From assembly GCA_017554605.1 (NCBI GenBank), contig JAFZIA010000003.1, forward strand, positions 1,688 through 65,687: a stretch of 64,000 bases of DNA, written 5' to 3'. Source of the stretch: Bacteroidaceae bacterium. GTDB taxonomy: Bacteria > Bacteroidota > Bacteroidia > Bacteroidales > Bacteroidaceae. A program made the position numbers and the translations under genes. The notes beneath the pieces were generated by a model that saw only the letters and a program-made list of their open reading frames with translations, was not told the origin of the DNA and did no database searches. Shown here one piece after another: positions 918 through 44,189 of this stretch (positions are counted from its first letter, which is position 1; each line of letters begins with the position of its first letter).

Positions 918-942
918 AGCATACTACTTACTACAATAGATT

Positions 943-4710: not shown

Positions 4711-6078
4711 ATGGCTAAAGAAAAGACAATTTTCCTGTGCAACGACTGTGGATATGAGTCGCCCAAATGGGCGGGAAAGTGCCCGTCGTGCGGTGCGTGG
4801 AACAGCTTGGTCGAGAAGAGGGTGCGTACAGGCGGTTCGGGTGGAGCGGCTCTCCAGTCCTCCTTTTCGGCCCAGTCGCAGCCTGTGCTCATAGACACTG
4901 TCTCCACCGATGAACTTCCGCGCATAAGTATGGGCGACGCTGAGCTCGATCGTGTGCTTGGCGGCGGGCTTGTGCCCGGTTCGCTTGTACTGCTCGGCGG
5001 TGAACCGGGTATCGGAAAATCGACCCTCATTCTGCAAACTGTGCTGCGTCTATCGGGGCAAAGGATTCTATATGTCTCGGGCGAGGAGAGCGTGCAGCAG
5101 ATTAAGCTGCGTGCCAACCGCATCGAATACTCGCAGTCGCAATGTATGATTGTGTGCGAGACACAGCTCGAGACTGTATTTACGCACATAAAGAATGTGC
5201 AGCCGCAGATTGTGATAATAGACTCCATACAGACTATGTGCAGCGAGACTGTCGACTCCTCACCGGGCAGTATGTCGCAGGTGCGCGAGTGTACGGCTAT
5301 GCTGCTGAAGTATGCCAAGGAAAATAATGTCCCTGTTATTCTCATTGGCCACATTACAAAGGACGGTGCAATAGCCGGGCCTAAAATCCTTGAACACATT
5401 GTAGACGTTGTAATACAGTTCGAGGGCGACCAGCACCACCTCTACCGTGTGCTGCGCTCTATAAAGAACCGCTTCGGCAGTACTGCTGAACTTGGAATAT
5501 ATGAGATGCGCCGCGAGGGACTGCGGCAGGTGAACAACCCATCGGAACTGTTGCTGAGCGAGCGTCACAGTGGAATGAGCGGCGTTGCAATAGCATCGGC
5601 AATAGAGGGCGTGAGTCCTTTCCTCATAGAGGTACAGGCGCTTGTGGGCAGCGCTGTCTATGGTACTCCGCAGCGCTCGTCGACGGGCTTCGACACGCGC
5701 CGTATGAATATGCTGCTCGCTGTGCTTGAGAAACGAGTGGGTTTCAAGCTGGCACAGAAGGACGTTTACCTGAATATTGCTGGAGGATTGAGGGTGAACG
5801 ACCCTGCAATAGATCTCTCGGTGATAAGCGCCATCTTGTCGAGTAATATGGACGTGGAGATTGAGCCTACGGTATGTATGGCGGGTGAGGTCGGACTATC
5901 GGGCGAGATACGTCCAGTAAACAGGATAGAGCAGCGCATTGCCGAGGCTGCAAAGCTCGGCTTCAGCCGCATAATAGTTCCCAAGAGCAATATGAAGGGG
6001 CTCGATGCATCGCGCTTCGCAATAGAAGTGAAGCCGGTTGCCAAGGTCGAGGAGGCTTTCAGGCTAATCTTCGGATAG
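4711..6078 (+). CDS. radA: DNA repair protein RadA/Sms
   Basis: N-terminal zinc ribbon CNDCGYESPKWAGKCPSCGAWN, Walker A GGEPGIGKST, KNRFG motif and a Lon-like C-terminal domain. I prefer ATG 4711 over the TTG at 4642 used by the ORF track. Confidence 0.92.
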   Translation: MAKEKTIFLCNDCGYESPKWAGKCPSCGAWNSLVEKRVRTGGSGGAALQSSFSAQSQPVLIDTVSTDELPRISMGDAELDRVLGGGLVPGSLVLLGGEPGIGKSTLILQTVLRLSGQRILYVSGEESVQQIKLRANRIEYSQSQCMIVCETQLETVFTHIKNVQPQIVIIDSIQTMCSETVDSSPGSMSQVRECTAMLLKYAKENNVPVILIGHITKDGAIAGPKILEHIVDVVIQFEGDQHHLYRVLRSIKNRFGSTAELGIYEMRREGLRQVNNPSELLLSERHSGMSGVAIASAIEGVSPFLIEVQALVGSAVYGTPQRSSTGFDTRRMNMLLAVLEKRVGFKLAQKDVYLNIAGGLRVNDPAIDLSVISAILSSNMDVEIEPTVCMAGEVGLSGEIRPVNRIEQRIAEAAKLGFSRIIVPKSNMKGLDASRFAIEVKPVAKVEEAFRLIFG

Positions 6079-27295: not shown

Positions 27296-27434
27296 GTCAA
27301 TCTGTTAAAAAACAGTACAAAATGTAATTTACATAATAGTTGCGTTGTTTGGTCGTTTATTTTATTGTAAATTTGTACGATTTTTTGGAAAGCACTGTTT
27401 TAAGTGAAATGTTTTATAGTAAATAGATGAATTG

Positions 27435-30400
27435 ATGAGCAAAAAGACACAAAAAACGATGTTATTTGGCAAAATGCTATTATGCTCGCTTTTGATGCTG
27501 ATAGCCTTGCCTGCGGCTACTCTGGCCAATGACAACTATGCCGAGGAGGTTGTGTGTGCTAACGAAGATGAAGCAACGGTTGTTTTTGGTTACGTAATAG
27601 ACAAACAGACCCGTGAGCCGCTTATTGGTGCCTCTGTTGCAATATGGAAGGACGGCAAGCTGCTGACAGGTACTTCCACAAACCTCGAGGGTGATTTCCG
27701 TATAATATCCCCCGTAAAGGATTTTGAGGTAGAAGTTACTTTTGTTGGTTACAGACCCATTAGATTCCGTTCGAATGAGCGTAAGCTCAAAGATATGATA
27801 ATTGAGCTCGAAGAGGACGCAAATACGTTGGGCGACGTTGTCATTACAGGTTTTGTTACAAAGAACAAGCAGACCTTTACCGGTTCGGCAACCGAAATAT
27901 CGGGTGTGGAGCTCAAGCAGGTATCGAGTACCAACATACTCAACGCAATTGCTGCACTTACTCCTGGTATGTCAATGGTGCAGAACAACTCGCAAGGTTC
28001 TAACCCTAACCATATGCCCGAGCTTGTGTTGCGCGGTATGAGCTCTTTCTCCAATGAGGGACAGCAGGTTAACCAGCCTACAATTATCCTCGACGGTTCC
28101 GAGATTACAATGCAGGACCTCTACGACCTCGACATAAACGAGGTTGAAAAGATTACCGTGCTCAAAGACGCGTCGGCAACGGCACTGTACGGTTCAAAGG
28201 CGGCAAACGGCGTCATTGTAATTACTCGCAAGCCTATCCTCGAGAGCAAGCTGCGTGTGCAGTATAACTTTACGGGTAATTTGCAGTTCCCTATGCTCGA
28301 CGATTATGATGTGCTCAATGCAGCCGAGAAACTCGAGTATGAGCGTTTGGCAGGACTGTACGATGCAAAGGGAGCGATAAACGCTACAACAGGAATGCCC
28401 TTGCAGTACGACTACGACAAGCTCTACAACCAGCGTTATATGGCTATCAGGGCTGGGCAGAATACCGATTGGCTCTCGCAGCCTGCGCGTACGGCATTCT
28501 CGCACGACCACTCGTTGCGTGTGTACGGTGGCGCACAGGACCTTCGCTTTGAGCTTACTGGCCGCTTTGGCGATACACGCGGAGTTATGAAGGACGACTA
28601 TCGTAAGCGTTACAGCATAGGATTTAAGATTGACTACTTTATGGAGAACGGTTTGCAGATTTCTAACCGTACTACCTATCAGGAATTGGACATCCAGAAT
28701 ACCCCTTACGGCTCATTCTCGCAGTATGTGCAGATGAACCCCTACGATGCAATATACAATGCCGACGGAACGCTCAACAACAATCTTGCGTGGGACCTCG
28801 ATAATCCGCTTTATGAGGCCACTATCGGCAGTTTCTCTACAAGTGGCGAGCGTACATTCAGCAATATCACGGACTTGCGTTGGGATATAAGCAAGATGTT
28901 CCTTGTGACAGGACACTTCAATGTGACAAGCAGCGCGGGTGAGAGCGACATCTTTACTTCGCCAAAGTCACGTGTCTACAAGGATATTACCGATATATCA
29001 AAGAAAGGACAATATACAAAGAGCAACGACCGCGGAACAAGCTACAACGGTAATCTTGTGGGTACTTTCAACAAGATGTTCAAGGACGAGTCGCTCATAA
29101 GCGTGTCGGCAGGTTGGGAAATAAACCACTCGCAGAATACGGGTGAGACCATACGTACAATAGGATTCTTCAACGACCACCTCTCGTCGGTTGGCAATGC
29201 TGTGGGTTATCCCAATGACGGAAAGCCTTACGGTTCAGTTTCGGAGACGGCCGATGTGGGTTTCTTTACAACAGGAAACTTCTCTTTCCGCAACCGCTAT
29301 TTTGCCGATGCAACCTGGCGTACCACAGGTTCGTCGCAGTTTGGCGAGAACAACCGCTTCGGACACTTCTGGTCGGGTGGTCTTGGCTGGAATGTGATGA
29401 ACGAGGAGTTTATGAAGGACGTAAAGAAGAACTTCGATGTATTCAAGGTGCGTTCAAGCGTAGGTTATACTGGAAAGGTAAGCTTCAGCCCCTTCCAGGC
29501 AATGACAATGTACCAGTATATGAACAGCTACGAGTATAAGAACGGAGTGGGTGCAATTCCTATTACAATTGGCAACGTCGACCTTGCCTGGGAGCGCACA
29601 ATGAACTACAATGTGGGTATAGACCTTAGTATGTTCAACCGCCGTCTGAACTTTACCGTCGATGCGTATATCCGTAACACTACCGACCTTTTGCTCGACA
29701 AGGCAAAAGCTCCTTCGACAGGTGTTACCACTGCAAAGTCGAACTTGGGCGAGATGCAGAATAAAGGTATCGAGTTCCAACTCGACGGATATGTATATCG
29801 TACCAATGATTTCTATTGGCGATTGGCTACTACCGGTTATATGAATCGCAACAAGATAACAAAGATAAATAAGGCGCTCGAGGAGATTAACAAGGAGAAC
29901 CAGGCGAATGCCGACCTCTATCTTACTCCTCTGCCACAGTATGCCGAGGGTGAGAGTGTGACTGCACTTAAGCTTGTACGCTCGGGAGGTATTGACCCAG
30001 CTACAGGAAAGGAGATATACATCAAGCGCAATGGCGAGCGTACATTTGTCTACGACCCAGCCGACAAGGTACTCATTGGTGATACCGAGCCTGCATACAA
30101 TGGAACATTCAGCACTAATCTCTATTGGAAAGGCTTCAGTCTTTATGCAATGTTCAATTTACGTTTGGGTGCGTGGGTGTATAACACCACCCGTGTGACA
30201 AAGGTCGAGGGTTCCGACCCTGTCTACAATGCCGACCGCCGTGTCTTCCAGAGCCGTTGGAAAAAGCCTGGCGATGTAGCACTGTACAAGAATATTGCCG
30301 ACAGCTCACGTCCCGAGCAGACCGACCGTTTTGCCGAGGAAGAGAATACACTTACATTGGGCTCTCTCAACCTGAGCTATGAGTTTAGCGATGACTTCTG

Positions 30401-30539
30401 CAAGAAGATGCATTTGCGTAATATGCGTGCAGGATTGAACTTTACCGATATTCTGCGCTTCTCGACAGTGAAGATTGAGCGCGGAACCGATTATCTCTAC
30501 AGTCAGGGCTTTGAATTCTATTTGAACTTAACACTTTAA
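27435..30539 (+). CDS. SusC/RagA-family TonB-linked outer membrane protein
   Basis: CarboxypepD_reg-like N-domain (VVFGYVIDKQTREPLIGASV), plug region (ITGFVTKNKQTFTGSATEISG, LRGMSSF, TVLKDASATALYGSKAANGVIVITRK) and a barrel. No STN-type N-terminal extension. Confidence 0.92.
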   Translation: MSKKTQKTMLFGKMLLCSLLMLIALPAATLANDNYAEEVVCANEDEATVVFGYVIDKQTREPLIGASVAIWKDGKLLTGTSTNLEGDFRIISPVKDFEVEVTFVGYRPIRFRSNERKLKDMIIELEEDANTLGDVVITGFVTKNKQTFTGSATEISGVELKQVSSTNILNAIAALTPGMSMVQNNSQGSNPNHMPELVLRGMSSFSNEGQQVNQPTIILDGSEITMQDLYDLDINEVEKITVLKDASATALYGSKAANGVIVITRKPILESKLRVQYNFTGNLQFPMLDDYDVLNAAEKLEYERLAGLYDAKGAINATTGMPLQYDYDKLYNQRYMAIRAGQNTDWLSQPARTAFSHDHSLRVYGGAQDLRFELTGRFGDTRGVMKDDYRKRYSIGFKIDYFMENGLQISNRTTYQELDIQNTPYGSFSQYVQMNPYDAIYNADGTLNNNLAWDLDNPLYEATIGSFSTSGERTFSNITDLRWDISKMFLVTGHFNVTSSAGESDIFTSPKSRVYKDITDISKKGQYTKSNDRGTSYNGNLVGTFNKMFKDESLISVSAGWEINHSQNTGETIRTIGFFNDHLSSVGNAVGYPNDGKPYGSVSETADVGFFTTGNFSFRNRYFADATWRTTGSSQFGENNRFGHFWSGGLGWNVMNEEFMKDVKKNFDVFKVRSSVGYTGKVSFSPFQAMTMYQYMNSYEYKNGVGAIPITIGNVDLAWERTMNYNVGIDLSMFNRRLNFTVDAYIRNTTDLLLDKAKAPSTGVTTAKSNLGEMQNKGIEFQLDGYVYRTNDFYWRLATTGYMNRNKITKINKALEEINKENQANADLYLTPLPQYAEGESVTALKLVRSGGIDPATGKEIYIKRNGERTFVYDPADKVLIGDTEPAYNGTFSTNLYWKGFSLYAMFNLRLGAWVYNTTRVTKVEGSDPVYNADRRVFQSRWKKPGDVALYKNIADSSRPEQTDRFAEEENTLTLGSLNLSYEFSDDFCKKMHLRNMRAGLNFTDILRFSTVKIERGTDYLYSQGFEFYLNLTL

Positions 30540-30547
30540 TTGCACCG

Positions 30548-32002
30548 ATGATTATGAAGAAGATGAAATATATTGTATTGTGCTTATTAGCGTTGACGTT
30601 TGTAACCACATCGTGTGACGACTTTTTGGATATTACTCCCGACGGTCAGGTGAAGCGCGACCCGCTTCTCTCTACAGCCGAGGGTATTGAGGACGCAATG
30701 TACGGCGTCTATTCGCAGATGCGCTCTACCTCGCTCTATGGTCAGGAACTTTATTTCTCGGCACTCGAGATACTTGCGCAGAATATGCACTGCGATGGTA
30801 ATGTAACCGTTACTCCGTTGAGCGCCTACGACTACACAAACACTAATGTGAAGAGTCTTTTTGAAAATGTGTGGACTCAGATGTATAAAAACATATCCAA
30901 TGTGAACAGTGTGCTCGATGCTCCTCTTGTGGCAAACGCTACTGAGTTTCCTTATACCGTATATCGTGGCGAGGTGTTGGGTTTGAGAGCCTTTATGCAC
31001 TTTGACCTTGTAAGGTTGTTCGCACCGCAATATACTCTCGACGCAACAGTGGAGGGAATACCTTATGCTACGGACTTCTCGCTCAATACCCCCGACTTTG
31101 AGTCGCTCGCGAAGAACTACGAGCATATCCTTGCCGACCTTCACGAGGCCGAGCTCCTGCTTGCCGACGAGGACGACTACGAGGGTGCGGGCAACTTTAT
31201 GCTCGACCGTCAGATACACTTCAACAAGTATGCTGTGTGGGCTACTCTTGCGCGCGTCTACCTTACAATGGGCAATAAGGAAAAGGCTAAGGAGTATGCC
31301 CTCAAGACTATCGGCGGCAAATATTCGTTGAAGGAGAAAACCGAGATTGAGAACGACCTTGCCGGAGTGCTCTCGAAGAAAGAGTGTCTCTTTGGTATCT
31401 ACAGTGCTACTTTCTATGACCAGGTGTATGCAAAATTGCACCTTACAACCACCCGTTACTCCCTAAACCTGCGCAACGATTATATGGCAATATACGAGAA
31501 GGATAATTCGGGACTCGATTATCGTGTCGATGCATATTTTGTTCCCGTTACACAGGGAGACGAGAAGGTGTACCGCCTGAAGAAGCTCACCGAGTATTAC
31601 GAGCTCAACAATATGGCTGCCAACCGTCCCGCCGACCTCATACTGGGAATAAATATGATAAGACTGCCCGAGATGTACTACATCATTGCCGAGGCATTGC
31701 TCGACGAGAACCCCACTGAGGCACTCAGCTACTACAATGCGGTGCGTGTGAACCGCGGATTGGAGCCCCTTACAGGTACTGCGCTCGACGAGAATACTGG
31801 TGAACTTGTGGAGCGTCCCCTTACTTTGGAGCATATCAATGAGGAGCGTTACAAGGAGTTCTTTGGCGAGGGACAGGAGTTCTTCAACAAGAAGCGCCTG
31901 AATCTTCCTATTCTCTCGTACGACGGTGCAACGGAGTATAAGGCAAGCAACGCAATGTTTGTCATTCCCATTCCCGATGCCGAGCGCGAGAATCGTTACT
32001 GA
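30548..32002 (+). CDS. RagB/SusD-family nutrient-binding lipoprotein
   Basis: Lipobox FVTTSCDDFLD immediately followed by the typical SusD N-terminus. TPR-like helices and ERxxEF-type motif INEERYKEFFGEGQEFFNKKR. Confidence 0.9.
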   Translation: MIMKKMKYIVLCLLALTFVTTSCDDFLDITPDGQVKRDPLLSTAEGIEDAMYGVYSQMRSTSLYGQELYFSALEILAQNMHCDGNVTVTPLSAYDYTNTNVKSLFENVWTQMYKNISNVNSVLDAPLVANATEFPYTVYRGEVLGLRAFMHFDLVRLFAPQYTLDATVEGIPYATDFSLNTPDFESLAKNYEHILADLHEAELLLADEDDYEGAGNFMLDRQIHFNKYAVWATLARVYLTMGNKEKAKEYALKTIGGKYSLKEKTEIENDLAGVLSKKECLFGIYSATFYDQVYAKLHLTTTRYSLNLRNDYMAIYEKDNSGLDYRVDAYFVPVTQGDEKVYRLKKLTEYYELNNMAANRPADLILGINMIRLPEMYYIIAEALLDENPTEALSYYNAVRVNRGLEPLTGTALDENTGELVERPLTLEHINEERYKEFFGEGQEFFNKKRLNLPILSYDGATEYKASNAMFVIPIPDAERENRY

Positions 32003-32032
32003 TTTTATTGTTGAACAGAATACTATAGATAT

Positions 32033-32866
32033 ATGAAAAAAGCATTGAATATGGTGCTGCGCGCGTTGTCTGTTGCAGCAGTCTTTCTTTTTGCAGCCTG
32101 CGAGGAGACCGATTATCTGAGATTCGATACATCGCACTCGGGAATATATTTTACAAAAGATACGCTGCACTATTCTTTCAGCGTGACTCCTGTGGAGATT
32201 AAGAGTCACCAATTCAACATCCCCGTGAGGGTGATGGGCGGTATTAGCGATAAAGAGCGCGAGGTTGAATTTGCTGTAAGAGCCGACTCTACAACAGCCG
32301 AGGAGGGCGTACATTATACGATAGGCAAAGCAGTCATTATGCCAGATTCTATCGACGGATATATTCCCGTGACAATCCTGCGCGATAATCTCGAAGGAAA
32401 TTACACCGACGGTTATAAAAAATATCGTCTCTGCATCGAGTTGAGGCAGAACAAGAACTTTGTTCCCACACTCGACTCGCTCAGCCAGGTGCGTATGCTC
32501 TATTTCGACAATGCGATTGACACTCCCGAGTGGTTCGACTATAAGAACGACAAGATATGGCACGAGGGTGCGCCTCACCCCGAGCTCGGCTCTTGGCATC
32601 CCTATACATTCATTAAGCTGGTGGAGCAGTTCCACACAATAGCCGATGTACTGCCCGAGACATACGTCAAGATGGTGGAGTATTATGGTGGCGAGAATCT
32701 CGAGAAAGTGCCATACGCATCGTTCTACCCCTATCTGCCCATTATGCAGAAGTATGTGCTTGCGCCCCTGTACGAGTACTTCAGCAACCCCGACAACCGC
32801 GAGGATATATTGGCAATGTACCCCGACTATCCTTTCGATTTCCCCAATCCATACTCTAACGATTAA
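32033..32866 (+). CDS. DUF4843-like lipoprotein
   Basis: Lipobox LFAAC and a Calx-beta-like N-domain (VEFAVRADSTTAEEGVHYT). The position after SusD matches the common SusC/SusD/DUF4843/PKD-like gene order. Confidence 0.65.
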   Translation: MKKALNMVLRALSVAAVFLFAACEETDYLRFDTSHSGIYFTKDTLHYSFSVTPVEIKSHQFNIPVRVMGGISDKEREVEFAVRADSTTAEEGVHYTIGKAVIMPDSIDGYIPVTILRDNLEGNYTDGYKKYRLCIELRQNKNFVPTLDSLSQVRMLYFDNAIDTPEWFDYKNDKIWHEGAPHPELGSWHPYTFIKLVEQFHTIADVLPETYVKMVEYYGGENLEKVPYASFYPYLPIMQKYVLAPLYEYFSNPDNREDILAMYPDYPFDFPNPYSND

Positions 32867-32897
32867 GAATCATAAACAATAGAATATCAACGGTATT

Positions 32898-34448
32898 ATG
32901 AGAATTGCAAAATATATTCTTCCGCTGTTCCTGGCGCTTGTGTCGGTATCTTGTTTCGAGGATGAGACAACCAGTGCTACCCGTCCGCTCTCCGAAATAA
33001 CCATCGATGCACAAAGTGTGTCGGGCGAATATAATGTAAACAAGAACGAAGTATTGGAGATTGCTCCTGTCGTAACCCAGACAAACAAGCAGCTGCCTTT
33101 GTCGTATACCTGGGAGATTGACCAAAAGGTTGTATCGAAAGACGAGGTATTTGTGTATAAGGCTACAACGCTTGGTGTCTTTGACGGCCGACTCATTGTT
33201 GAGAACGAGGACGGAAAGGCGTTCCACCCGTTCAAGCTCTATGTGAACTCGCCTTACGAGGAGGGTATAACCGTTCTGAGCAAGGACGCCGACGGAAAGT
33301 CTATGCTCTCTTTTATGCAAAAGGCTACATCGCCCGACGAGGAGCAGAAGTTCTACGAGGGTGACTGCTTCTCGATAAACAACGAGGGACTCTTCTTCGC
33401 CTCGAATGCCTCGGATATAATACAGACAAGCGGCTCGGTGATTATTGCCTGTCAGGGTGGCGATGCGTCGCCCGAGGACGAGGCTACGATATATTTCCTC
33501 AACGAGAAGACATTCGTGATGGAGAATATCGTAAGAGGAAGCGAGTATCCCACCTTCAAGCCTACAAAATTGCTGACACCCGGCGAGAGTGCCGAGGGCG
33601 TGTCGTATCCTGTGCTCTCGGCCGACGGCAAGGTGTATGCGCTCCCCACATACAATGCGTTGCTACAGCCTTCGCCCAAGCTACTCTCTACATACGCACA
33701 GACGGCGTTTGTGGCAGGAGAGAGTGCAAGCTACTACGATGTAATACTTTGGGACAAGGAGGTGAACGACATTACCCTTGTGTACAACGGCTACGGTCCT
33801 TACTATTGCGGCTCCAAATATCTGCTGATGCGCAACGACTCGGCTTTCTCTTCGGACGAGTACTATGTGAAGAACTTCAGCAAGCTCAAGGGCGTGCGCA
33901 CCCTAACATACATACACCGTACAAAGGAGCAGATGCTTACATCGCGTCGTGAGCTCATTGCAATTGTTGAGGCTCCGCTTATGTTGCAGAAAGTTGTGCT
34001 TGCCACATTCTTCTGGGAGCCCGTGGCAGGAAAGACAGGCGAGTACGTGGTGCTCGACAACAACGGATTTAAGAAGGCTGCTTCCCGTAACTATACATTG
34101 ATAAACGAGAATACCCCCTGTATTGCAAATGCCACATTCAAGACAATGCTTTTTGCCAATGGCAACAAGGTTATGAAGTGGTTCTACACAAAGGAGGAGA
34201 AAGAGGGTGGCAAGCAGTATCTGCTTGAGGATGCCGAGGTGCTCTTGACTGTAGGCAGTGACGACGCAGTCATTACCTCATTCGAAATAAGCGATGACCA
34301 CAAAACCACTTACGTAGCTTTTTATGAGCCCAATCAGGAGGGGCTGAACGGCTCTGTATGGGTGTTTGACACCGATAATGGTACTGTGCTTGAGAAATAC
34401 GACAATGTATGCTATCAGCCCGTGAAAATGTTCTATAAGAAGAAATAA
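32898..34448 (+). CDS. PKD-like family lipoprotein
   Basis: Lipobox VSVSC, an N-terminal Ig/PKD-like segment (LSYTWEIDQKVVS) and a long beta-rich body. Position after DUF4843. Confidence 0.6.
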   Translation: MRIAKYILPLFLALVSVSCFEDETTSATRPLSEITIDAQSVSGEYNVNKNEVLEIAPVVTQTNKQLPLSYTWEIDQKVVSKDEVFVYKATTLGVFDGRLIVENEDGKAFHPFKLYVNSPYEEGITVLSKDADGKSMLSFMQKATSPDEEQKFYEGDCFSINNEGLFFASNASDIIQTSGSVIIACQGGDASPEDEATIYFLNEKTFVMENIVRGSEYPTFKPTKLLTPGESAEGVSYPVLSADGKVYALPTYNALLQPSPKLLSTYAQTAFVAGESASYYDVILWDKEVNDITLVYNGYGPYYCGSKYLLMRNDSAFSSDEYYVKNFSKLKGVRTLTYIHRTKEQMLTSRRELIAIVEAPLMLQKVVLATFFWEPVAGKTGEYVVLDNNGFKKAASRNYTLINENTPCIANATFKTMLFANGNKVMKWFYTKEEKEGGKQYLLEDAEVLLTVGSDDAVITSFEISDDHKTTYVAFYEPNQEGLNGSVWVFDTDNGTVLEKYDNVCYQPVKMFYKKK

Positions 34449-34487
34449 ATATTTCGAAAAAAATAAAATAGTTACTTGTGATATGTC

Positions 34488-34527
34488 ATAAAGTCAGTGT
34501 ATCAAGCGATGCGCTGACTTTATTTTG
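34488..34527 (+). terminator. Terminator after the PKD-like gene
   Basis: 10-bp stem ataaagtcag / ctgactttat, extendable with G-U pairs, followed by TTTT. Confidence 0.5.
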
Positions 34528-34657
34528 TTAAATTGAGAGGTGATTTTGGATAGATGTTCGCAGAATTGTGTGAATTGTATTGAATGTCAATGCTGTATGA
34601 TGGCCGTTTTTTGTTGATTCTTTTTGTCCGGAATGCTAATTTTAGATAATTTTTTAT

Positions 34658-34665
34658 TAACTTTG
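34658..34665 (+). promoter_or_regulatory. Candidate -7 box (TAACTTTG) for the GH95 gene
   Basis: Exact TAnnTTTG, 80 nt upstream of ATG 34746 and downstream of the 34488-34527 hairpin. Confidence 0.45.
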
Positions 34666-34745
34666 CACAAATATTGCGGTGTTGTGTATGTGTAAAAAGC
34701 AGCCCTTGCCGATAATGCGGATATAACTTTATTAATTTATATTTT

Positions 34746-37700
34746 ATGTTAAGAAAACTTTGTTTGATGTTCACCGCCCTCTTGGCGGTAGCTGTGATGA
34801 GAGTCGAGGCTGCTGAGCCTGTCTTCTCCACAGAGGGTGCCCCTGTTTGGCACTGGATTCAGTTCAATGCAGGTTCGAACCTGCTTAAGGACAATGGAAA
34901 CGGCAATAATCTTAAGACAGTCACTGTTGCCGACCGTAACGACGATGCAAAATGGATTCTTGTAGGTAACGCCGATGCGTTCTACCTCAAGAGTGCCAAT
35001 GGCAACTACGTTTCTTGGAGCGGCAGCCGCTACGCTGCAACTTCTGATGCTAATGGCAAGGCTACTCTCAAGCTGCGTTTGAAGGACGATGGCAAATACG
35101 AGATAAAGCGTGCCGATAATGAAGCTGAGAAATATATGAATCAGTGGGGTGGTACAGGCGCTGGTGTAGAGCTTGGCGAGTGGAACAGTAACGACAACAA
35201 CAATGCTCTCTCATTTGTGGTTGCTCCCGAGGTGCCTATGTGCTCTACCGAGGAACTCCCCGAGTGGTACTACATACAGTTCAGTACAGGTTCGGGCGTC
35301 CTCAGCGACAAGGGAGCTGGCAACGAGGTGCTCACTGCTGCAAAAGCCGAGGAAGATGCCAATCTGTGGCAGTTGGTAGGCGAGAAGAGCAACTTCTACC
35401 TCAAGAGCAAGGCCGGTAACTACCTCTACCGCAAGGACGACGGCTTCTATGCTACAACAAACGACGCAGCGTCAAAGACAATGCTTGCAATTGACGAGAG
35501 AGTTCTTGGTTACTGGGATATTCACCGTGTGGGTGAGTCTAAGGGCCTCAACCAGTTCCAGGGTGCAGGTGTAGGCCGCCGACTCTCTGAGTGGACTGCC
35601 GGTGACACCAACAACCGTTTGCACTTCGTATATTTCCCCGTAGAGCCCGAGGTATACGAGCCTAACGTGTTCTCTACCGAGGAGTCGCCCGTATGGCACT
35701 CTGTAGAGTTCAAGACAGGTGGTCACTTCCTCTCGGACAAGGGTAACGGACAGAACCTTACAACAACTGCTGCTGCCGAGGCCGATGCACAGTTGTGGAT
35801 GTTCATCGGTAAGCCCGAGAACTTCAAGATGAAGAACAGGACTGGCAACTATGTAACCTGGAACAGTGGAGCTTCGCGCTTCGCATCATCGTCTGCTGCT
35901 GCCGATGCTGTGGAGTTGAGTTTCGTAAAGGGTACAACCGACGGTACTTGGGAACTCCAGCGTGTGGGTAGCAACAAGTGTCTCAACCAAAATGGCGGTA
36001 CTGGCGTAGGTGTCTCTTTGGGTGAATGGAATGCAGGAGATGCTAACAACCCCGTATATCTCAATCTTATCGACGAGAGCACACTTGAAAGCTATATAGA
36101 GCCTGTATTCAGCAACGACGATACTGACAACTGGTTTATGATTAAGTTTGCCAAGAATGGCAACCACCTTTCATCGGGTGGCGAGGGCAACCAGGCTGTT
36201 ACCGCATTGATGAAGAACGTGAAGTCGCAGTGGTGGAAATTTGTCGGTACAGCCGATAACTTCCAGCTCGTAAACAAAGATGGCTGCTACGCTACAATGA
36301 AGGCAGGTACAGCAACCAACGGACAGACAAGCAACCACCTGCTCTATATGCAGTCAACAGCCGATGAGCACGGTTTCCGCATCGAAAAATCGACACGCGC
36401 AAACTACACCGATGCATACGAGATCCGCTACAACGGCAAGGACGGCAACCAGAACTCGTTCAACCAGTGGGGTGGTGCAAATGCCGGCGTATCTATCGGT
36501 CTTTGGACTGCACACAGCGACGACAACAACCCTCTTTACATATATATTCCTGCTGCTAACCTTGCAAGTGTATTCGACATCGAGGGAATCGAGAACTATA
36601 CTCCCGAGAACCCCCTCACACTCTGGTACAAGAATGCGGCAAGCAATATGAATGTGAGCGACCAGTGGATGGAGTATTCACTCCCCATCGGTAACGGACA
36701 GTTCGGTGCAAGCATCTTCGGTGGTGTTGCACGCGAGCAGGTACAGTTCAACGAAAAGACACTGTGGAGCGGTACAAAGAACGACAAGAGCTCTGAGTAC
36801 GGCGACTACGAGAACTTCGGTAGCGTATATATCAACGACATAAGCGAAATCTTCGGCGAGGGCAAGAGCGTAAAGAACTACTATCGTCAGCTCGACCTCT
36901 CTAACGCAACTGCAAGCGTACACTACAGCAGCACCGACGGTTCAATCAACTTTACACGCGAATACATAGCAAGCAACCCCGACAAGGTGGTGGCTATGCG
37001 CCTCACAGCCGACAAGCCCGGAAACATCAGCATCAATGTTACATTTGAGGCTGGCCGTCCCGGATTGCGTGCTACTACCACTTACAGCAACGGTACAGCA
37101 TCGTTTGCAGGAAAATTGGAGACAATATCATACAATGCTCTTGTAAAGGTAGTTCCCACAAACGGAACAATGACAACCGACGAGAAGGGTATCACAGTGA
37201 AGGGTGCCGATGAGGTTCTTATCATCTTGGGTGGAGATACCGACTTTGATGCTTACAACCCCAACTATGTTTCGGCTACCGAGGAGCTTCCCGCCCGCGT
37301 TGAGGCAAGAGTGAACAGCGCTGCTGCAAAAGACTGGAACACTCTCTACACAGCACACGTTGAGGATTTCCAGCACTATTTCGACCGTTGTAGCTTTGAG
37401 CTTGCTGGTGCTGCAAATACAATGCCCACCGACGACCTCGTAAGAGAGTATGCTAAGCGTACAACAGGTATGGAGTCGTATGCTCTTATGCTTGAGCAGA
37501 TGTACTTTGCTTACGGCCGTTACCTCGAGATTTGTTCTTCACGTGGTGTAGACCTCCCCAGCAACCTTCAGGGTATTTGGAACAACAGTTCAGAGCCTGC
37601 ATGGAATGCTGACATTCACGCAAACATCAATGTTCAGATGAACTACTGGCCCGCAGAGCCCACCAATATGAGCGAAATGCACTTGCCTTTCCTTAACTAT

Positions 37701-39590
37701 ATCATCAATATGGCAAACAGCGCCGAGTGGAAGGCATTGGCCCAGAAGAACGGTGCCACCCGTCCCGAGGCTTGGACATTCTTGACAGAGAACAACATCT
37801 TCGGTGGTTTCGGTAGCTTTGCGTCGACAGCGTTCATCAACAACGCTTGGTACTGCTCGCACTTGTGGCAGCACTACCGTTACACTCTTGACAAGGAGTT
37901 CCTTACACGTGCATTCCCTGCAATGTGGGGCGCATCGTTGTTCTGGGTAGAGCGTGTTGTTTACAATGAGCAGGACGGTACATACGAGTGTCCCAACGAG
38001 TACTCTCCCGAGCACGGTCCCGGTGCACAGAATGCTACAGCACACTCGCAGCAGCTTGTTTGGGAGTTGTTCGACAATACTCTCCAGGCTATCGAGATTT
38101 TGGGTGCTCAGAATCTGGGAATTGCCGCTGAGGATATTGATGCTCTCAAGGACCGTTTCTCAAAGCTCGATACAGGTCTTGCAACCGAGACTTACAACGG
38201 CGATTGGGGCAATGCCATCGCTGCCGGCTCAAAGCTCCTGCGCGAGTGGAAGTACAGCTATTATACAGCAGGACAGAACGGTCACCGTCATATGTCGCAC
38301 CTTATGTGTCTCTATCCCTTTGCACAGGTTACAGGCGAGAGCGAGTACTTTGAGGCTGCTATAAACTCTATGCTCCTCCGTGGCGATGCTTCTACCGGCT
38401 GGTCAATGGGTTGGAAGATTAACCTCTGGGCACGTGCATTGGACGGCAACCACTCACACGACATTCTCGAGCTTGCATTGCGTCACCACAGCGTGAGCGG
38501 TGGCGGTGTTTACTACAACCTCTACGACAGCCACTCACCCTTCCAGATTGACGGTAACTTCGGTGCTTGTGCAGGTATTGCCGAGATGCTCTTCCAGAGC
38601 CACAGCGACGTGCTGCACATTCTTCCCGCTCTTCCCGACGTATGGGCCGAGGGTTCTATTAAGGGTCTCAAGGCTGTTGGCGACTTCACCGTTGATATTG
38701 ACTGGGCTGCAAACAAGGCTACAAAGGCTACAATCGTAAACAACCAGGGTACAAAGTGCGTAGTTAAGGCCGAGGGAATTACCAATGCACTTATAACAGT
38801 AAACGGTGTCGAGGTTACAGCACAGTGTGCAGGCGACGGTACTTGCTACATACCCTCGGGTAAGGGCGACAAGATTGTCATCGACTTTACTCAGGAGCCT
38901 ACTGTGCACCCCACATTGGTAATCCTCGACAGCGAGAAGAAGAATTTCTCGGCAACAGGAACATTCTCAAAGATTACCTACGAGCGTACACTCTCAGCTG
39001 GAAAGTACGGTACAATTGTTCTTCCTTTCGAGGTTGACGATGCTACAAAGGCAGCCTTTGAGTTCTATGCCTTCAAGGGCAAGGAGGACGGAGTATTGAA
39101 CTTTACTCAGGTTGACGCTCCCCAGGCCAATGTTCCCTACCTCTACAAGAACGTAGCCGATGTTCCTGCAACTGAACTTGTTTCGGTGGGCGACTATACA
39201 ATTGCTTCAACTGTTGTAAATAACACAGCCAACGGAGAGTGGAGTATGGTAGGTACATACAGAAACGTATCCATCACCGATGCCGACGAGCTGTTGGTAA
39301 CATACGCAGTATCGAACAATGCTATACGTAACTCATCGGCAGGTTTGAGCTTTGCTCCTTTCCGTGCATATTTTGTAGGTGAGAACTTCAACGACCTCTT
39401 CCCTGCAGATGCTCCCGCTAAGTCACTCTCTATAAGTATCACCGACAATGACGGCAATGTAACAAATATCACTCCAGTCGATATTGAGAATGTGAACGAT
39501 GGTATCTTCTACGACCTTTGTGGTCGCAGAGTAGAGCAGCCTGTTAAGGGTATCTACATTGTTAACGGTAAAAAAGTAATCATCAAATAA
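34746..39590 (+). CDS. Multidomain secreted GH95 glycoside hydrolase (alpha-L-fucosidase/galactosidase family) with four N-terminal tandem modules and a T9SS-like tail
   Basis: Signal peptide. GH95 signatures are LWYKNAA...WMEYSLPIGNGQFGASIFGG...QFNEKTLWSG, LQGIWN...NADIHANINVQMNYWP, STGWSMGWKINLWARALDG and HSPFQIDGNFGACAGIAEMLFQSH. The C-terminus is ...GIFYDLCGRRVEQPVKGIYIVNGKKVIIK*. Confidence 0.9.
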   Translation: MLRKLCLMFTALLAVAVMRVEAAEPVFSTEGAPVWHWIQFNAGSNLLKDNGNGNNLKTVTVADRNDDAKWILVGNADAFYLKSANGNYVSWSGSRYAATSDANGKATLKLRLKDDGKYEIKRADNEAEKYMNQWGGTGAGVELGEWNSNDNNNALSFVVAPEVPMCSTEELPEWYYIQFSTGSGVLSDKGAGNEVLTAAKAEEDANLWQLVGEKSNFYLKSKAGNYLYRKDDGFYATTNDAASKTMLAIDERVLGYWDIHRVGESKGLNQFQGAGVGRRLSEWTAGDTNNRLHFVYFPVEPEVYEPNVFSTEESPVWHSVEFKTGGHFLSDKGNGQNLTTTAAAEADAQLWMFIGKPENFKMKNRTGNYVTWNSGASRFASSSAAADAVELSFVKGTTDGTWELQRVGSNKCLNQNGGTGVGVSLGEWNAGDANNPVYLNLIDESTLESYIEPVFSNDDTDNWFMIKFAKNGNHLSSGGEGNQAVTALMKNVKSQWWKFVGTADNFQLVNKDGCYATMKAGTATNGQTSNHLLYMQSTADEHGFRIEKSTRANYTDAYEIRYNGKDGNQNSFNQWGGANAGVSIGLWTAHSDDNNPLYIYIPAANLASVFDIEGIENYTPENPLTLWYKNAASNMNVSDQWMEYSLPIGNGQFGASIFGGVAREQVQFNEKTLWSGTKNDKSSEYGDYENFGSVYINDISEIFGEGKSVKNYYRQLDLSNATASVHYSSTDGSINFTREYIASNPDKVVAMRLTADKPGNISINVTFEAGRPGLRATTTYSNGTASFAGKLETISYNALVKVVPTNGTMTTDEKGITVKGADEVLIILGGDTDFDAYNPNYVSATEELPARVEARVNSAAAKDWNTLYTAHVEDFQHYFDRCSFELAGAANTMPTDDLVREYAKRTTGMESYALMLEQMYFAYGRYLEICSSRGVDLPSNLQGIWNNSSEPAWNADIHANINVQMNYWPAEPTNMSEMHLPFLNYIINMANSAEWKALAQKNGATRPEAWTFLTENNIFGGFGSFASTAFINNAWYCSHLWQHYRYTLDKEFLTRAFPAMWGASLFWVERVVYNEQDGTYECPNEYSPEHGPGAQNATAHSQQLVWELFDNTLQAIEILGAQNLGIAAEDIDALKDRFSKLDTGLATETYNGDWGNAIAAGSKLLREWKYSYYTAGQNGHRHMSHLMCLYPFAQVTGESEYFEAAINSMLLRGDASTGWSMGWKINLWARALDGNHSHDILELALRHHSVSGGGVYYNLYDSHSPFQIDGNFGACAGIAEMLFQSHSDVLHILPALPDVWAEGSIKGLKAVGDFTVDIDWAANKATKATIVNNQGTKCVVKAEGITNALITVNGVEVTAQCAGDGTCYIPSGKGDKIVIDFTQEPTVHPTLVILDSEKKNFSATGTFSKITYERTLSAGKYGTIVLPFEVDDATKAAFEFYAFKGKEDGVLNFTQVDAPQANVPYLYKNVADVPATELVSVGDYTIASTVVNNTANGEWSMVGTYRNVSITDADELLVTYAVSNNAIRNSSAGLSFAPFRAYFVGENFNDLFPADAPAKSLSISITDNDGNVTNITPVDIENVNDGIFYDLCGRRVEQPVKGIYIVNGKKVIIK
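34815..36560 (+). repeat. Four tandem ~145-aa protein-level repeats inside the GH95 gene (aa ~24-605)
   Basis: Each unit begins EP(V/N)FS(T/N)(E/D)..P.W..(I/V)(Q/E/K)F. Each contains D(A/S)(K/N/Q).W.(L/F)(V/I)G....F.(L/M)K(S/N)..GNY and (L/F/M)NQ(W/F/N)(G/Q)G.G.GV.(L/I).(E/L)W....(D/N)NN. Confidence 0.8.
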
Positions 39591-41077: not shown

Positions 41078-42058
41078 CTAAGGCAATTGCTCCCACGCAA
41101 GGGCGCTTGCTCCAAGAATGGCTGCGTCGGAGTCGGGCAGTTGCGAGATTATTATCTTTGTCTTTCCCTTGAATGTGTGCAGCACACTCTTGTCGAGCGA
41201 GCGTTGCAGGGGGGCGAGCAGCAGGTTGCCGGCACGCGACAGTCCTCCAAAGAGTATTATTGCCTCGGGGCTCGAGAAGGCTACAAAATCGGCTATCGCC
41301 TCGCCGAGCATCTTGCCCGTGTATTCGAACACGTCCAATGCTATCTTGTCTCCCTTGAGCGCTGCTTCGTACACGTCGCGCGAGGTTATTCCCTTAATGT
41401 CGCGCAGCAGGCTGGGGGTGTCGAGCGTTTCGAGCATCTCCTTGGCAGTGCGCACTACACCCGTTGCCGAGCAGTATGCCTCCAGGCAGCCTTTACGTCC
41501 GCAGCCGCACAGCCGGCCCTCTTCTCCGCGCACCATCGTCACGTGTCCCAGCTCGCCGGCAAAGCCGTCGCTGCCGTAGACCAGCTCGCCGTTTATCACA
41601 ATGCCGCTGCCCACACCCGTGCCAAGCGTTATGACAATGAAATTCTTCATTCCTTTGGCTGTGCCGTATGTCATTTCGCCTATTGCTGCCGCGTTGGCGT
41701 CGTTTGTCACGCGGACGGGTATCCCGCTGCACTCCGAGAGCATCTGGGCAAGCGGGAGCACTCCTTTCCACGGCAGGTTGAACGCGTGTTCAATGTTACC
41801 GGTGTAAAAGTTGCTGTCGGGAGCGCCCACGCCAATGCCGCGAATCTTGCCCTTGCTGCCGGTTATCTCTATGAGCCGTCCGATAACCTCGTTTATGGCG
41901 TTGATATACTCCCCGAAAGTGGGGTAGGCGTTTGTGGCGATGCTCTCGTCGCGTGCAAGAATCTTGCCGCGGGCATCTACAATGCCTATCTTGGTCCCCG
42001 TTCCGCCAATATCAATGCCAATCACTCTGTTCTTTTCGACATTCATACGCGAAGGCAT
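41078..42058 (-). CDS. ROK-family sugar kinase (glucokinase-like)
   Basis: VIGIDIGGTGTKIGIV ATP motif and the ROK Cys cluster GHVTMVRGEEGRLCGCGRKGCLEAYCS. Confidence 0.85.
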   Translation of the reverse strand: MPSRMNVEKNRVIGIDIGGTGTKIGIVDARGKILARDESIATNAYPTFGEYINAINEVIGRLIEITGSKGKIRGIGVGAPDSNFYTGNIEHAFNLPWKGVLPLAQMLSECSGIPVRVTNDANAAAIGEMTYGTAKGMKNFIVITLGTGVGSGIVINGELVYGSDGFAGELGHVTMVRGEEGRLCGCGRKGCLEAYCSATGVVRTAKEMLETLDTPSLLRDIKGITSRDVYEAALKGDKIALDVFEYTGKMLGEAIADFVAFSSPEAIILFGGLSRAGNLLLAPLQRSLDKSVLHTFKGKTKIIISQLPDSDAAILGASALAWEQLP

Positions 42059-42325
42059 TTATTTTATGCCATTCCCGTGGGCTACGGCAGCGTCGGCCTG
42101 TGCCTTCTCCTTTATGCCGTGTGCAACCTCGGCCACGGCGTCGGCAACGTCGGCTCCCGCATCTGCCATCTTTAGCTTTATGTCGCACCCTTTGTTGTGC
42201 ATAACTTCGCACATTGCGCCCAACCACGCTTTTGTACGCTCACTCCTGGCACATTTGTATGCCATTGCACCTGCTATGGCACCCAGTGCCATTCCCACCC
42301 AGAATTTAGGATTGCTCAGAATCAT
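42059..42325 (-). CDS. Small hypothetical protein (88 aa; one N-terminal hydrophobic helix, Ala/Asp-rich tail; YtxH-like at best)
   Basis: The ORF's stop codon directly abuts the ROK start (TAAATG). N-terminus is FWVGMALGAIAGAMAY. Confidence 0.45.
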   Translation of the reverse strand: MILSNPKFWVGMALGAIAGAMAYKCARSERTKAWLGAMCEVMHNKGCDIKLKMADAGADVADAVAEVAHGIKEKAQADAAVAHGNGIK

Positions 42326-42487
42326 AGTCTCTGAAAATTAAAGGTTAGTACTGTTTTTTTGGGGCGGTTTTTTCTTCCGTTTCCCGAGAAAATAACGAGT
42401 GGGGCAGGCGATAAGTTTGCCCTTGGGGCGCAATTAACAGAATTGGACTCTTTGGAATTAATTTTGACAAAAATAATCCAACGGAAA

Positions 42488-42683
42488 TTAAGAAGCTGTT
42501 TTAAATTTATATCGTTAAGTTTTTTATAGGTCAAAATTGGAATGTTTTATTATTTTTCGAGGGCGCGTAGCGGGCTACGTAACCGAGAGAAAGAAGAAAA
42601 CAGGCAATTTTGAACACAAAAAACAACGAAATAACGGCTTCCAATATAATAAATACTTTTTTTAGAAATTTAAACAGCTTCTA
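42488..42683 (-). mobile_element. IR-bounded repeat element, copy B (short form, ~196 bp), inverted relative to copy A
   Basis: The reverse complement of 42541-42682 matches 4057-4198 with a single mismatch. 42488-42536 matches the reverse complement of the copy A right arm with one 1-nt indel. Termini form a ~20-bp inverted repeat. Confidence 0.65.
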
Positions 42684-42689
42684 AAAACG

Positions 42690-44189
42690 ATGATGAATAT
42701 GAAATTTCTTTTGGGGATTCTGTGCCTTAATTTCCTGGTTACCGGTGCTTATGCAACGTCTTTAAGTGACTCAACGAATGTATCGTTTGCAGATATCCCT
42801 TTCCATAACCTGACTAAAGATTCGTTGAAGATTCTGGACATCGGCAACAGCTACACAACCGATGCGACACACTATATCCCTCAAATAACCAATGCAGCAG
42901 GCGCAATAGGCGGATATTCCCTTTATAGCGCTGTGCGAAGTTCGGCTTCGTACAAAAGTTGGGTGAATATATATAACGACTGTGACTTTATGGAATATAG
43001 AGTCAACAAGGTAGCAGGCGATGAGATCGAAGGGGTGAATGCCGGTGTTGGCGAGATAGGTGACGGAGTCCTTTTCAGGCAGGCACTGGAGAGAGGAAAT
43101 TGGGACTTGATTATAATCCACCAGGTCAGCCTTTATGCCAATGATTTTGATTTGTGGGGAGGAGACACTGCCGGTGGCTATTTGAACGAATTGTTAACTA
43201 TTCTGTGCGAGACCAACCCACAGGCATCAATAGGCATTTATCTTATCCATAGTTATAGGGGAGATTACAAGAACAACACCGAAGGCTCCTCCTTGGCAAG
43301 GTGGCAGAATGTTGCCGACGCGATTAAAAAGCTCAAATTGAATTACGGCATTGATTTTGTGATACCTTATGGCACTGCTGCACAAAATCTTCGCGCCTCT
43401 TCCCTGAATGACGAGTATGACTTTTCCTATGATGGAGCACATCTTTCCGACGGTATTGGCGATTATGTAGCGGCCTGTTGCTATTGGGAGGCGCTGCTTG
43501 CACCCCGTTTCGGCAGTATTATTGGAAATAGCTGGCGTTACACAAACCTGAATGAGAATACTGCGGGTGTCAAGAAAATAACCGACGAAACAGTATCTTT
43601 TGCCCAAAAGGCAGCCGTGTTGGCAATGAGAAATATGTACCAACTGACAGACGTGGACAGTTTTGATACATATATGCAACTGCCTGCCGAGTATGTCTGC
43701 TACGATAATAGAATCATAGGTTACAATTATAACAAACCGATGGGTTGCATAACTATTCCCGACAGCATTGTGGGCATTACCCGTGGGGTGTTCAACGACT
43801 GTAAGGAGGTTAGAAGACTTATCTTGCCAGCGGGCTTGCGGTCTTTGGGCAATTATGCATTCAACAATTGTACAGCCATTGAAGCCATCACTTCTTTTAT
43901 TCCGGGAGATGAACTGTTCCCGATTAACGAGAGTGTCTTCAACGGTGTCGACAAGAGTGCTTGTACACTATATGTACCTTACGGTTCAAAAGAAGCATAC
44001 ACCTCAACAGATGGTTGGAAAGATTTTTACAACGTCGTGGAGGGGGATTTATCTGATATAAGTGAAATTAAGAGTGATGATTGGAATGTGGACACAGAAA
44101 TTGTCTATGACATGAATGGTAGAAGAACAAAGGGCTCTACAAATGGCATTCACATCATCAATGGCAAAAAAGTATTGGTAAAGCAATAA
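42690..44189 (+). CDS. Secreted fusion protein: DUF4886/SGNH-like hydrolase domain + BspA-type LRR + T9SS-like tail
   Basis: Signal peptide. LKILDIGNSYTTDA (GDS(L)-like block I position) and ...SYDGAHLSD (block V-like D-x-x-H). LRR text is ITIPDSIVGITRGVFNDCKEVRRLILPAGLRSLGNYAFNNCTAIEAI and TLYVPYGSKEAYTSTDGWKDF. The C-terminus is IVYDMNGRRTKGSTNGIHIINGKKVLVKQ*. Confidence 0.7.
   Translation: MMNMKFLLGILCLNFLVTGAYATSLSDSTNVSFADIPFHNLTKDSLKILDIGNSYTTDATHYIPQITNAAGAIGGYSLYSAVRSSASYKSWVNIYNDCDFMEYRVNKVAGDEIEGVNAGVGEIGDGVLFRQALERGNWDLIIIHQVSLYANDFDLWGGDTAGGYLNELLTILCETNPQASIGIYLIHSYRGDYKNNTEGSSLARWQNVADAIKKLKLNYGIDFVIPYGTAAQNLRASSLNDEYDFSYDGAHLSDGIGDYVAACCYWEALLAPRFGSIIGNSWRYTNLNENTAGVKKITDETVSFAQKAAVLAMRNMYQLTDVDSFDTYMQLPAEYVCYDNRIIGYNYNKPMGCITIPDSIVGITRGVFNDCKEVRRLILPAGLRSLGNYAFNNCTAIEAITSFIPGDELFPINESVFNGVDKSACTLYVPYGSKEAYTSTDGWKDFYNVVEGDLSDISEIKSDDWNVDTEIVYDMNGRRTKGSTNGIHIINGKKVLVKQ

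Follow-up and report, generated by a model that had tools for sequence, protein, structure and literature searches.

Analysis of a 64,000-nt stretch of the Bacteroidaceae bacterium contig JAFZIA010000003.1 (hereinafter, the window) shows that the short repeat located between a ROK kinase operon and the gene for a secreted DUF4886 and leucine-rich repeat (LRR) protein, here denoted copy B, is a non-autonomous DNA transposon, that is, a miniature inverted-repeat transposable element (MITE), inserted at a TAA trinucleotide upstream of the ROK operon. The account that we favor as a whole is that the element is a MITE rather than an invertible promoter, that its dispersed copies of 190 to 264 bp would provide portable homology for recombination, and that one of its arms, the R-arm, would be the proximal upstream region of the gene it adjoins; this combination is probably correct. 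The original prediction, made from the sequence of the window, gave precedence to an invertible switch and mentioned, as a fallback, a MITE that landed in a promoter. The fallback is the reading that holds, directly so for the identity of the element and indirectly, through the bias of one end of the element toward start codons, for the supply of a promoter or leader.

The identity of the element is evident from its dispersal, its flanks and the alleles that lack it. A search for the exact 22-nt core of the element (GCGCGTAGCGGGCTACGTAACC), with one genome per species, yielded at least 89 genome stretches among the matches listed, of which about 45 loci belong to the family of copy B and come from about 12 Bacteroidaceae, Bacteroidales and Prevotella metagenome-assembled genomes (MAGs) from ruminant and human guts; the loci and contigs compared, designated by L-numbers below, total approximately 0.7 Mb. 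The MAG RGIG7477 alone carries at least 19 element loci. The complete copies (n = 27) are about 90% alike and come in a short form of 183-191 bp and a long form of 264 bp, with terminal inverted repeats (TIRs) of 16-22 nt across the family, the element itself being 190 or 264 bp; the only open reading frames (ORFs) inside it are spurious short ones, so that it is non-coding. Of 17 unique copies, 13 have the same triplet in direct orientation on both sides (TAA/TAA in 7, TTA/TTA in 5 and ATA/ATA in 1) and 2 have triplets of the inverted type (p = 0.007), which identifies the triplets as a 3-bp TWA target duplication and not a part of the inverted repeat. The state before insertion is also represented: the empty site ggaaatTAAtaataaac is found at the exact position in L126, L128, L129 and L130, and in L097 (97% identical), and in contigs that encode the identical 88-amino-acid (aa) ORF at the head of the ROK operon, the empty-site sequence (…ggaaatTAAtaataaacattgg…) runs on into a UbiA gene. 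The occupied site, ggaaatTAA followed by the element, is present in the window and in L121 and L123; in L122, L124, L125 and L127, the UbiA neighbor lies at a spacing that implies an empty site. For a repeat that is dispersed, has duplicated targets and is absent from empty-site alleles, transposition suffices to explain the structure of the locus and no flipping is needed.

Within the window, the gap between the start of the small ORF on the minus strand (42325) and the ATG of the DUF4886-LRR gene (42690) is 364 bp, and the repeat copy of about 196 bp occupies 54% of it, confirming the coordinates of a divergent region more than half filled by copy B. The inverted repeats at 42488-42507 and 42666-42685, with the sequence TAAGAAGCTGTTT(T)AAATTT, are 20 nt long and 85% complementary, in full agreement with the segment bounded by repeats of about 20 bp that had been described upstream of a secreted-protein gene. 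Once the duplicated triplets are set apart, the element proper spans 42492-42681 (190 bp). The adjacency to the LRR gene originally given as 7 nt thus stands, with a refined distance of 8 nt between the end of the element and the ATG, 3 of which belong to the target duplication. A second copy in the window, copy A, shares with copy B an arm of 154 nt at 97% identity and lies in the opposite orientation; matches to the core and TIR occur in the window only at these two copies, with zero expected by chance. The relevant features are as follows.

4058-4321, minus strand: copy A, a long-form MITE of 264 bp, inverted relative to copy B
4208-4282, minus strand: 75-nt internal block, the hallmark of the long form, linked to the RadA-side 'a' flank and also present in L076, L090 and L108
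4325-42488, no strand: 38-kb segment from RadA to the ROK operon, between the inverted copies
41078-42325, minus strand: operon of the 88-aa small ORF and the ROK kinase ('e' flank)
42489-42491, no strand: left TAA of the copy B duplication, equivalent to the lone TAA of the empty-site alleles
42492-42681, plus strand: copy B, a short-form MITE with L-end GAAGCTGTTT… and R-end …AAACAGCTTC, about 90% identical to 20 unique copies in other MAGs
42492-42507, plus strand: left TIR of copy B, with one extra T (GCTGTTTTAAATT) that marks the 'e' (ROK-side) copy
42563-42584, plus strand: the 22-nt apex core, with its second occurrence in the window at 4155-4176 (copy A)
42666-42681, plus strand: right TIR of copy B, AAATTTAAACAGCTTC
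42682-42684, no strand: right TAA flank of copy B, part of the LRR-side 'b' flank
42690-44189, plus strand: DUF4886 and BspA-type LRR protein with an N-terminal signal peptide; the element R-arm is always directly upstream

To characterize the genes adjacent to the element, we counted, among the Bacteroidales copies with at least 400 nt of flanking sequence, the ends that are followed within 40 nt by an ATG opening an ORF of at least 100 aa. Such a start abuts 17 of the 30 R-ends (14 of 27 after removal of orthologous loci) and 1 of the 38 L-ends (p = 3.8e-6 for R versus L), at a distance of 4-28 nt between the R-end and the start codon. Similarly, the 5' ends of genes face the R-end in 21 of 29 cases and the L-end in 13 of 33 (p = 0.012). 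Several of the ORFs at R-ends, including the one in the window (MMNMKFLLGILCLNFLVTGAYA), open with clear signal or lipoprotein peptides, indicating that the start codons are genuine. Because the TIRs are nearly symmetric, the transposase is unlikely to set the orientation of the element relative to the gene, and differential survival of insertions is the more likely source of the R-end bias. A gene with an insertion 4-28 nt upstream of its start codon is separated from its own promoter, so that, in the survivors, the R-arm would supply both transcription and an AU-rich, translatable leader. Donation of a promoter or leader by the element is a plausible reading of these patterns: the R-arm would be the proximal upstream region of the downstream gene, acting as an outward promoter and/or an AU-rich untranslated leader, and selection would have kept the copies with the R-end at this short distance from a start codon. 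As the LRR gene keeps the R-arm in every arrangement, rearrangement should not switch this gene. With about half of the copies placing one specific end 4-28 nt before a start, a mobile element may rewire the upstream regions of many genes, those for secreted proteins included.

Four promoter-like boxes are relevant to the ROK-LRR gap, two inside the element and two outside it.

42605-42612, plus strand: CAATTTTG, the -7-like box facing the LRR gene; the A and TTTG are kept in 20 of 20 copies and the two middle bases vary
42532-42539, minus strand: CAATTTTG facing the ROK operon; the family consensus at this position is TATTTTTG
42459-42466, plus strand: TAATTTTG, native box outside the element, canonical TAnnTTTG
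42468-42475, minus strand: TATTTTTG, native box outside the element, divergent from the preceding one and likewise canonical

The conservation of the A and TTTG at 42605-42612 is compatible with a Bacteroidetes -7 element. The divergent boxes at 42459-42475 are likely to be the original promoters of the ROK operon and its ancestral UbiA neighbor; the ROK operon, then, probably retains a promoter of its own, possibly with read-through into the element. A scan for sigma-70 promoters and terminators gave nothing above the shuffled expectation.

Comparison of the window with other assemblies of the same species reveals that the copies coincide with changes in gene adjacency. The species carries at least five copies, which are named here by their flanks (a/b, c/d, e/f and g), plus one at 8967-9107 of L095. 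The latter is a long-form copy with the 75-nt block, just past UvrB on a 146-kb contig. The flanks and the element end that each adjoins are listed below.

Flank a: RadA side, L-end
Flank b: LRR side, R-end
Flank c: Na_Ca_ex side, L-end
Flank d: pepM1 side, R-end
Flank e: ROK side, L-end
Flank f: UvrB side, R-end
Flank g: YceG side, R-end
Flank h: UbiA side, empty site

In the window, copy A is the junction (a,d) and copy B is the junction (e,b). Elsewhere, the (a,b) junction, with RadA divergent from the DUF4886-LRR gene, is found in all six other contigs with identical RadA, one of them 146 kb long, and the (c,d) junction, with pepM1 followed by Na_Ca_ex, is found in five contigs with identical pepM1 that are 100% identical to the window at 1-4207. 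Flank e is joined to f in four contigs (including the 146-kb one), to g in one, and to h, without the element, in at least five; accordingly, in other contigs with the identical 88-aa ORF, the neighbor is always UbiA, UvrB or YceG. Marker-by-marker alignment shows that both copies in the window are mosaics. Copy B combines an e-type left part (the extra T and TTGGAATG) with a b-type right part (…GAACAC…), and copy A combines an a-type left part (the 75-nt block) with a d-type right part (…GAACAT…). The triplets that flank copy A are mismatched (TAA at 4055-4057 and TTA at 4322-4324), as expected of a recombinant, and those of (a,b) and (c,d) match. Hence the window copies are recombinant chimeras, a point missed by the original prediction, and any inverted part is the 38 kb between them. 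The premise of that prediction, a ROK operon, copy B and LRR gene side by side, accordingly holds for the window and for no other contig.

The GC skew is +0.067 in the 38-kb middle segment, and -0.058 and -0.048 in the left and right flanks, respectively, independent of gene strand; the cumulative skew has its minimum at 4450 and a plateau maximum at 41.5-44.5 kb, so that its sign reverses at both copies, and the (a,b) arrangement would give a continuous skew. As sequence, the 38 kb are inverted both relative to the other assemblies and relative to their own GC skew. The junctions of the window stem either from a recent rearrangement of 38 kb or from a mis-join through the repeat, and because they form a three-way permutation, a real rearrangement would require at least two events. 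In at least one instance, the copies have undergone real rearrangement, as a single 146-kb k141 contig carries (e,f) and (a,b) at a distance of 38 kb, and the flanks of (e,f) are mismatched (TAA/TGA). An origin of copy B by replicative intramolecular transposition of the RadA/LRR copy was considered and rejected, given that copy B lacks the 75-nt block and shares its ROK-side markers with the (e,f) and (e,g) alleles. An element-free RadA-LRR site was also sought via homologs of the LRR protein; the nearest non-identical ones (56-61%) are found in unrelated contexts, without the element. In MAGs of other species, L022 and L023 share the right flank and differ in the left one, and L022, L063 and L074 share the left flank (L017 is also among these loci); thus, exchange, or chimeric assembly, at the copies is not peculiar to the species of the window.

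These observations bear on three alternative explanations of the locus. The first choice of the original prediction, a trans-acting recombinase that flips the interior of about 158 bp and swaps the -7-like box facing each neighbor, draws on a layout that is real, with a segment bounded by inverted repeats immediately upstream of a secreted-protein gene and a box in each direction. However, the same segment recurs at dozens of unrelated loci with 3-bp duplications and empty-site alleles, and the interior has the same orientation in every contig covering the e or b flank (about 15 contigs, all from consensus assemblies), with no flipped allele. No recombinase or transposase is encoded in the 64-kb window, where the Mpi-type recombinase site, ARACGTWCGT, has zero matches as well; a trans-acting recombinase elsewhere in the genome is possible. 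We consider the flipping of copy B the least probable of all the readings weighed here. A reversible switch on a larger scale, with copies A and B as crossover sites for a 38-kb regulatory inversion, is very unlikely too. The segment between the inverted copies does occur elsewhere in the opposite relative orientation, and every mapped crossover falls within the interval that holds the conserved core, but this interval is simply the longest marker-free stretch, the junctions are a three-way permutation rather than a two-state flip, and the window lacks a recombinase. Furthermore, the proximal half of the element stays with each gene, leaving the linkage between promoter and gene unchanged, so that the exchange, real or artefactual, would not swap promoters. 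MITEs flanked by inverted repeats upstream of surface-protein genes thus mimic invertible promoters, and screens of Bacteroidales that use sequence alone or a PhaseFinder-style approach will pick them up as false candidates.

The alternative that carries real weight, at just under even probability, is that the window contains a repeat-mediated mis-join, in which case the gene actually opposite the LRR gene is RadA and the one opposite the ROK operon is UvrB or UbiA, and neither the location of copy B in a ROK/LRR promoter region nor the 38-kb inversion exists in any cell. Only the window shows the junctions (e,b) and (a,d), compared with 6, 5 and 4 contigs for (a,b), (c,d) and (e,f), respectively. 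Logan contigs of SRR12529252 that are 100% identical to the window stop within the element at the b and d flanks, so that the 38-kb 'inversion' is possibly an assembly mis-join; identity between copies extends over about 60-90 nt around the core, enough to confuse small-k assemblers; and the GC skew breaks exactly at both copies. Conversely, a recent true inversion would leave the same skew signature, true rearrangement does occur here, as the 146-kb contig with both (e,f) and (a,b) attests, the ancestral partner h never adjoins an occupied e site, and the mismatched target duplications mark (e,f) and (e,g) as recombinants. The junctions confined to the window and the contig breaks count against the account that we favor, as do several other observations. 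The -7-like boxes facing each way are present where the original prediction placed them (42605-42612 on the plus strand, 42532-42539 on the minus strand), but they carry no significance by number, YANNTTTG being found 80 times in the window against 80.8 expected; this chance frequency detracts from the invertible switch as well. Consensus assemblies are blind to a minority flipped orientation. Neither the fetched loci (approximately 0.7 Mb) nor the viral contigs or plasmids yielded an autonomous insertion sequence (IS) with the same ends, and the assignment of the element to the IS1031 group is tentative, being based on end sequence and duplication length.

All the structural differences observed between near-identical strains of this gut species have their breakpoints at copies of the element, which therefore account for real genome plasticity as well as for contig breaks or mis-joins in MAGs. 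The ROK/LRR adjacency may exist only in this assembly and, like the orientation of the 38-kb segment, needs confirmation at the level of reads.

The ends of the element (GAAGCTG… with TWA flanks) resemble those of two other MITE families described below (GAGGCTG… with TCA, and GAGCGTG… with TA or CTAR in Robinsoniella). Ends of the form GA(A/G)G combined with a 3-bp TNA duplication match the description of the IS5 family, IS1031 group, in ISfinder. Orphan TIR matches, examined as candidate parents, proved to be degenerate or truncated copies or members of a second subfamily, and pairs of TIRs located 300-3000 bp apart enclose ordinary genes and no transposases. The viral contigs gave zero matches for the core and zero for the R-end. 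In plasmids, the whole consensus element produced low-complexity matches only, and a core match inside a Burkholderia coding region was rejected on inspection as a chance one.

The most unusual property of the element is the distribution of its apex. The 22-nt core is present without a single change in three MITE families, from Bacteroidota, Firmicutes and Betaproteobacteria (core-bearing loci: the window, L003-L091 and L102-L115). The two families outside Bacteroidota are the following.

Robinsoniella peoriensis family (at least 13 loci in a cultured isolate, plus members in related Clostridiales MAGs): length about 160 nt, ends GAGCGTGTTTTAAAATTG…
Rhodocyclales family (a groundwater MAG and 12 metagenome contigs): length about 180 nt, ends GAGGCTGTGAAAAAT…, flanked by TCA/TCA in 8 of 9 cases

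The end sequences of the three families are related, and the arms are otherwise unalignable and match the composition of the hosts (AT-rich, intermediate and GC-rich). In all three, the core is located at the tip of a long hairpin (fold z-scores of -5.9, -12.0 and -13.4) with the same predicted apical fold, in which a lower GG/CC stem is followed by a GC/AA internal loop, the 6-bp stem GCGUAG/CUACGU and, at the tip, a CGGG loop. In a second subfamily from Bacteroidales (L021, L048 and L082), the sequence is GGCGCATAGCGGGCTATGTAACT, with two compensatory changes from G:C to A:U, one in each stem. The two strands differ in predicted stability.

Bacteroidales: forward strand -53, reverse complement -40 kcal/mol; forward more stable in 19 of 20
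Robinsoniella: forward strand -88, reverse complement -50 kcal/mol; forward more stable in 24 of 24
Rhodocyclales: forward strand -113, reverse complement -88 kcal/mol; forward more stable in 3 of 3

On the forward strand, there are 17 G·T wobble pairs versus 6 A·C mismatches (p = 0.035), a bias suggestive of selection acting on a single strand, either as RNA or as single-stranded DNA. None of the approximately 100 core-bearing loci is a full-length IS, so that the core is not a likely relic of a transposase gene. We tentatively suggest, as a possibility well short of an even bet, that the apical hairpin of 22-24 nt (GG-GC-GCGUAG-CGGG-CUACGU-AA-CC) is a functional module of a cross-phylum superfamily of IS5-like hairpin MITEs, which would dock a putative factor on single-stranded DNA or RNA for mobilization, or for an effect at the host level on neighboring genes or on recombination between copies. 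If so, selection keeps the apex identical in three phyla while its surroundings drift to the composition of the host.

A further alternative holds that selection acts on the element mainly in the form of a strand-specific, rod-like hairpin in RNA or single-stranded DNA, with the apex bound by a conserved putative factor, and that insertion close to a gene would deliver a cis-regulatory leader and not just a promoter. The identity of the apex among families with unrelated arms and host-matched GC content, the shared predicted fold, the two compensatory changes, the much better folding of the forward strand, the excess of G·T over A·C and the strongly negative z-scores all speak for a structured nucleic acid. 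Yet the orientation relative to genes in Robinsoniella is the opposite of that in Bacteroidales, with 5' ends facing the L-end in 18 of 27 cases and the R-end in 6 of 25 (p = 0.003), making a common role as a sense-strand leader unlikely. Searches of Rfam 15 at the element in the window, including a permissive locus search, yielded chance-level matches only, and representative Robinsoniella, Rhodocyclales and Bacteroidales copies yielded nothing relevant; the copies within a family are too similar for covariation; and a palindromic protein-binding site in double-stranded DNA would also give symmetric changes. We therefore regard this explanation as doubtful. In Robinsoniella, derivatives of about 45 nt that consist of the TIRs without the core abut full copies (L075 at about 190-260, L032 and L068); evidently, some machinery in this genome recognizes the element ends.

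The presence of one motif inside unrelated MITEs across phyla is unexplained by current models of MITE biology, and the motif is directly testable in the cultured Robinsoniella peoriensis isolate CCUG 48729, which carries at least 13 copies. A full-text search of the literature with the core and three TIR sequences found nothing. According to a survey of prokaryotic MITEs, the clusters of these elements are mostly genus-specific (PMC11602168); a term search of this survey returned no mention of Robinsoniella or IS5.

The element is new, and the class to which it belongs is familiar. Like the IS5-family (IS1031-group-like) MITEs, it is shorter than 300 bp, non-coding and multi-copy, has TIRs starting with GA(A/G)G and a 3-bp T-N-A duplication (TWA here and TCA in Rhodocyclales), and shows presence/absence polymorphism among strains; unlike them, it has no cognate transposase-bearing IS found so far, and its apical hairpin of 22-24 nt is strictly conserved in three phyla with arms that have fully diverged. 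The closest functional analogs are the Correia and ERIC-type repeats. Correia elements (CREE/NEMIS) of Neisseria are TIR-bounded repeats of about 100-155 bp with a short A/T target duplication that adjoin genes, have reported outward promoters and form hairpins in transcripts; an internal block distinguishes their long forms from the short ones, and they are found at rearrangement breakpoints. The element described here is likewise bounded by TIRs, adjacent to genes, present in long and short forms and located at breakpoints, but it differs in sequence and phylum, duplicates 3 bp instead of TA, has one end that is strongly favored beside start codons and contains a hairpin, not an IHF site, at its center. 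With ERIC/IRU, RUP and YPAL, it shares an imperfect palindrome of nearly full length with a conserved center, an intergenic location and, presumably, frequent co-transcription and orientation-dependent effects. Those repeats are confined to related genera, whereas here the central motif is identical in three phyla and the ends and duplications indicate DDE transposition. The invertible promoters of Bacteroides (capsule and fimbrial; Mpi/Tsr) are similar in that they are short segments flanked by inverted repeats just upstream of genes for surface or secreted proteins in Bacteroidales; the present element differs in being dispersed and multi-copy, with target duplications and empty sites, in lacking a recombinase motif and in showing no alternate orientation in consensus contigs. 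The features that go beyond the routine are the end-specific juxtaposition to start codons, the role at breakpoints and, above all, the cross-phylum apical motif.

Several minor observations concern individual copies. The UbiA-side flank of the empty site in L097 (2693-2712) contains the 9-mer ATTGGAATG, which is also present in the window at 42534-42545 and is the unusual marker that sets the left part of the ROK-side copy apart from all other copies; this match could be a coincidence or a trace of the origin of the ROK-side copy. The copies in L056 (about 5300-5480) and L086 (about 1330-1500) are cut by the same unrelated sequence (…gtaataatatagatattgaccc…tttagccccttcgggc…cgaccgttggttcg…), probably another small mobile repeat nested in the MITE. 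L022 contains, at 4112-4183, a separate, perfect-looking 70-nt hairpin that weakly matches several animal microRNA precursor models on both strands and is probably another palindromic repeat. The Bacteroidales-type copy in L058, a 3.9-kb contig of a MAG labelled Acutalibacteraceae, is most likely a binning contaminant rather than a case of cross-phylum transfer.

Otherwise, the gene content of the window consists of ordinary Bacteroidota housekeeping genes and a SusC/SusD-GH95 locus. The ROK ORF (41078-42058) encodes 326 aa in the window, a length that is unrecorded elsewhere, the neighboring proteins being on record; the difference from the 322 or 319 aa in other contigs is due to the called start codon and does not reflect a unique allele. 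The region 27432-39590 is a cluster of the polysaccharide-utilization type, with SusC-like, SusD-like, DUF4843 and PKD-like proteins followed by a GH95 fucosidase of 1614 aa that has N-terminal fascin/ricin-type lectin repeats and internal 41-nt repeats in its gene at 35128, 35974 and 36451.

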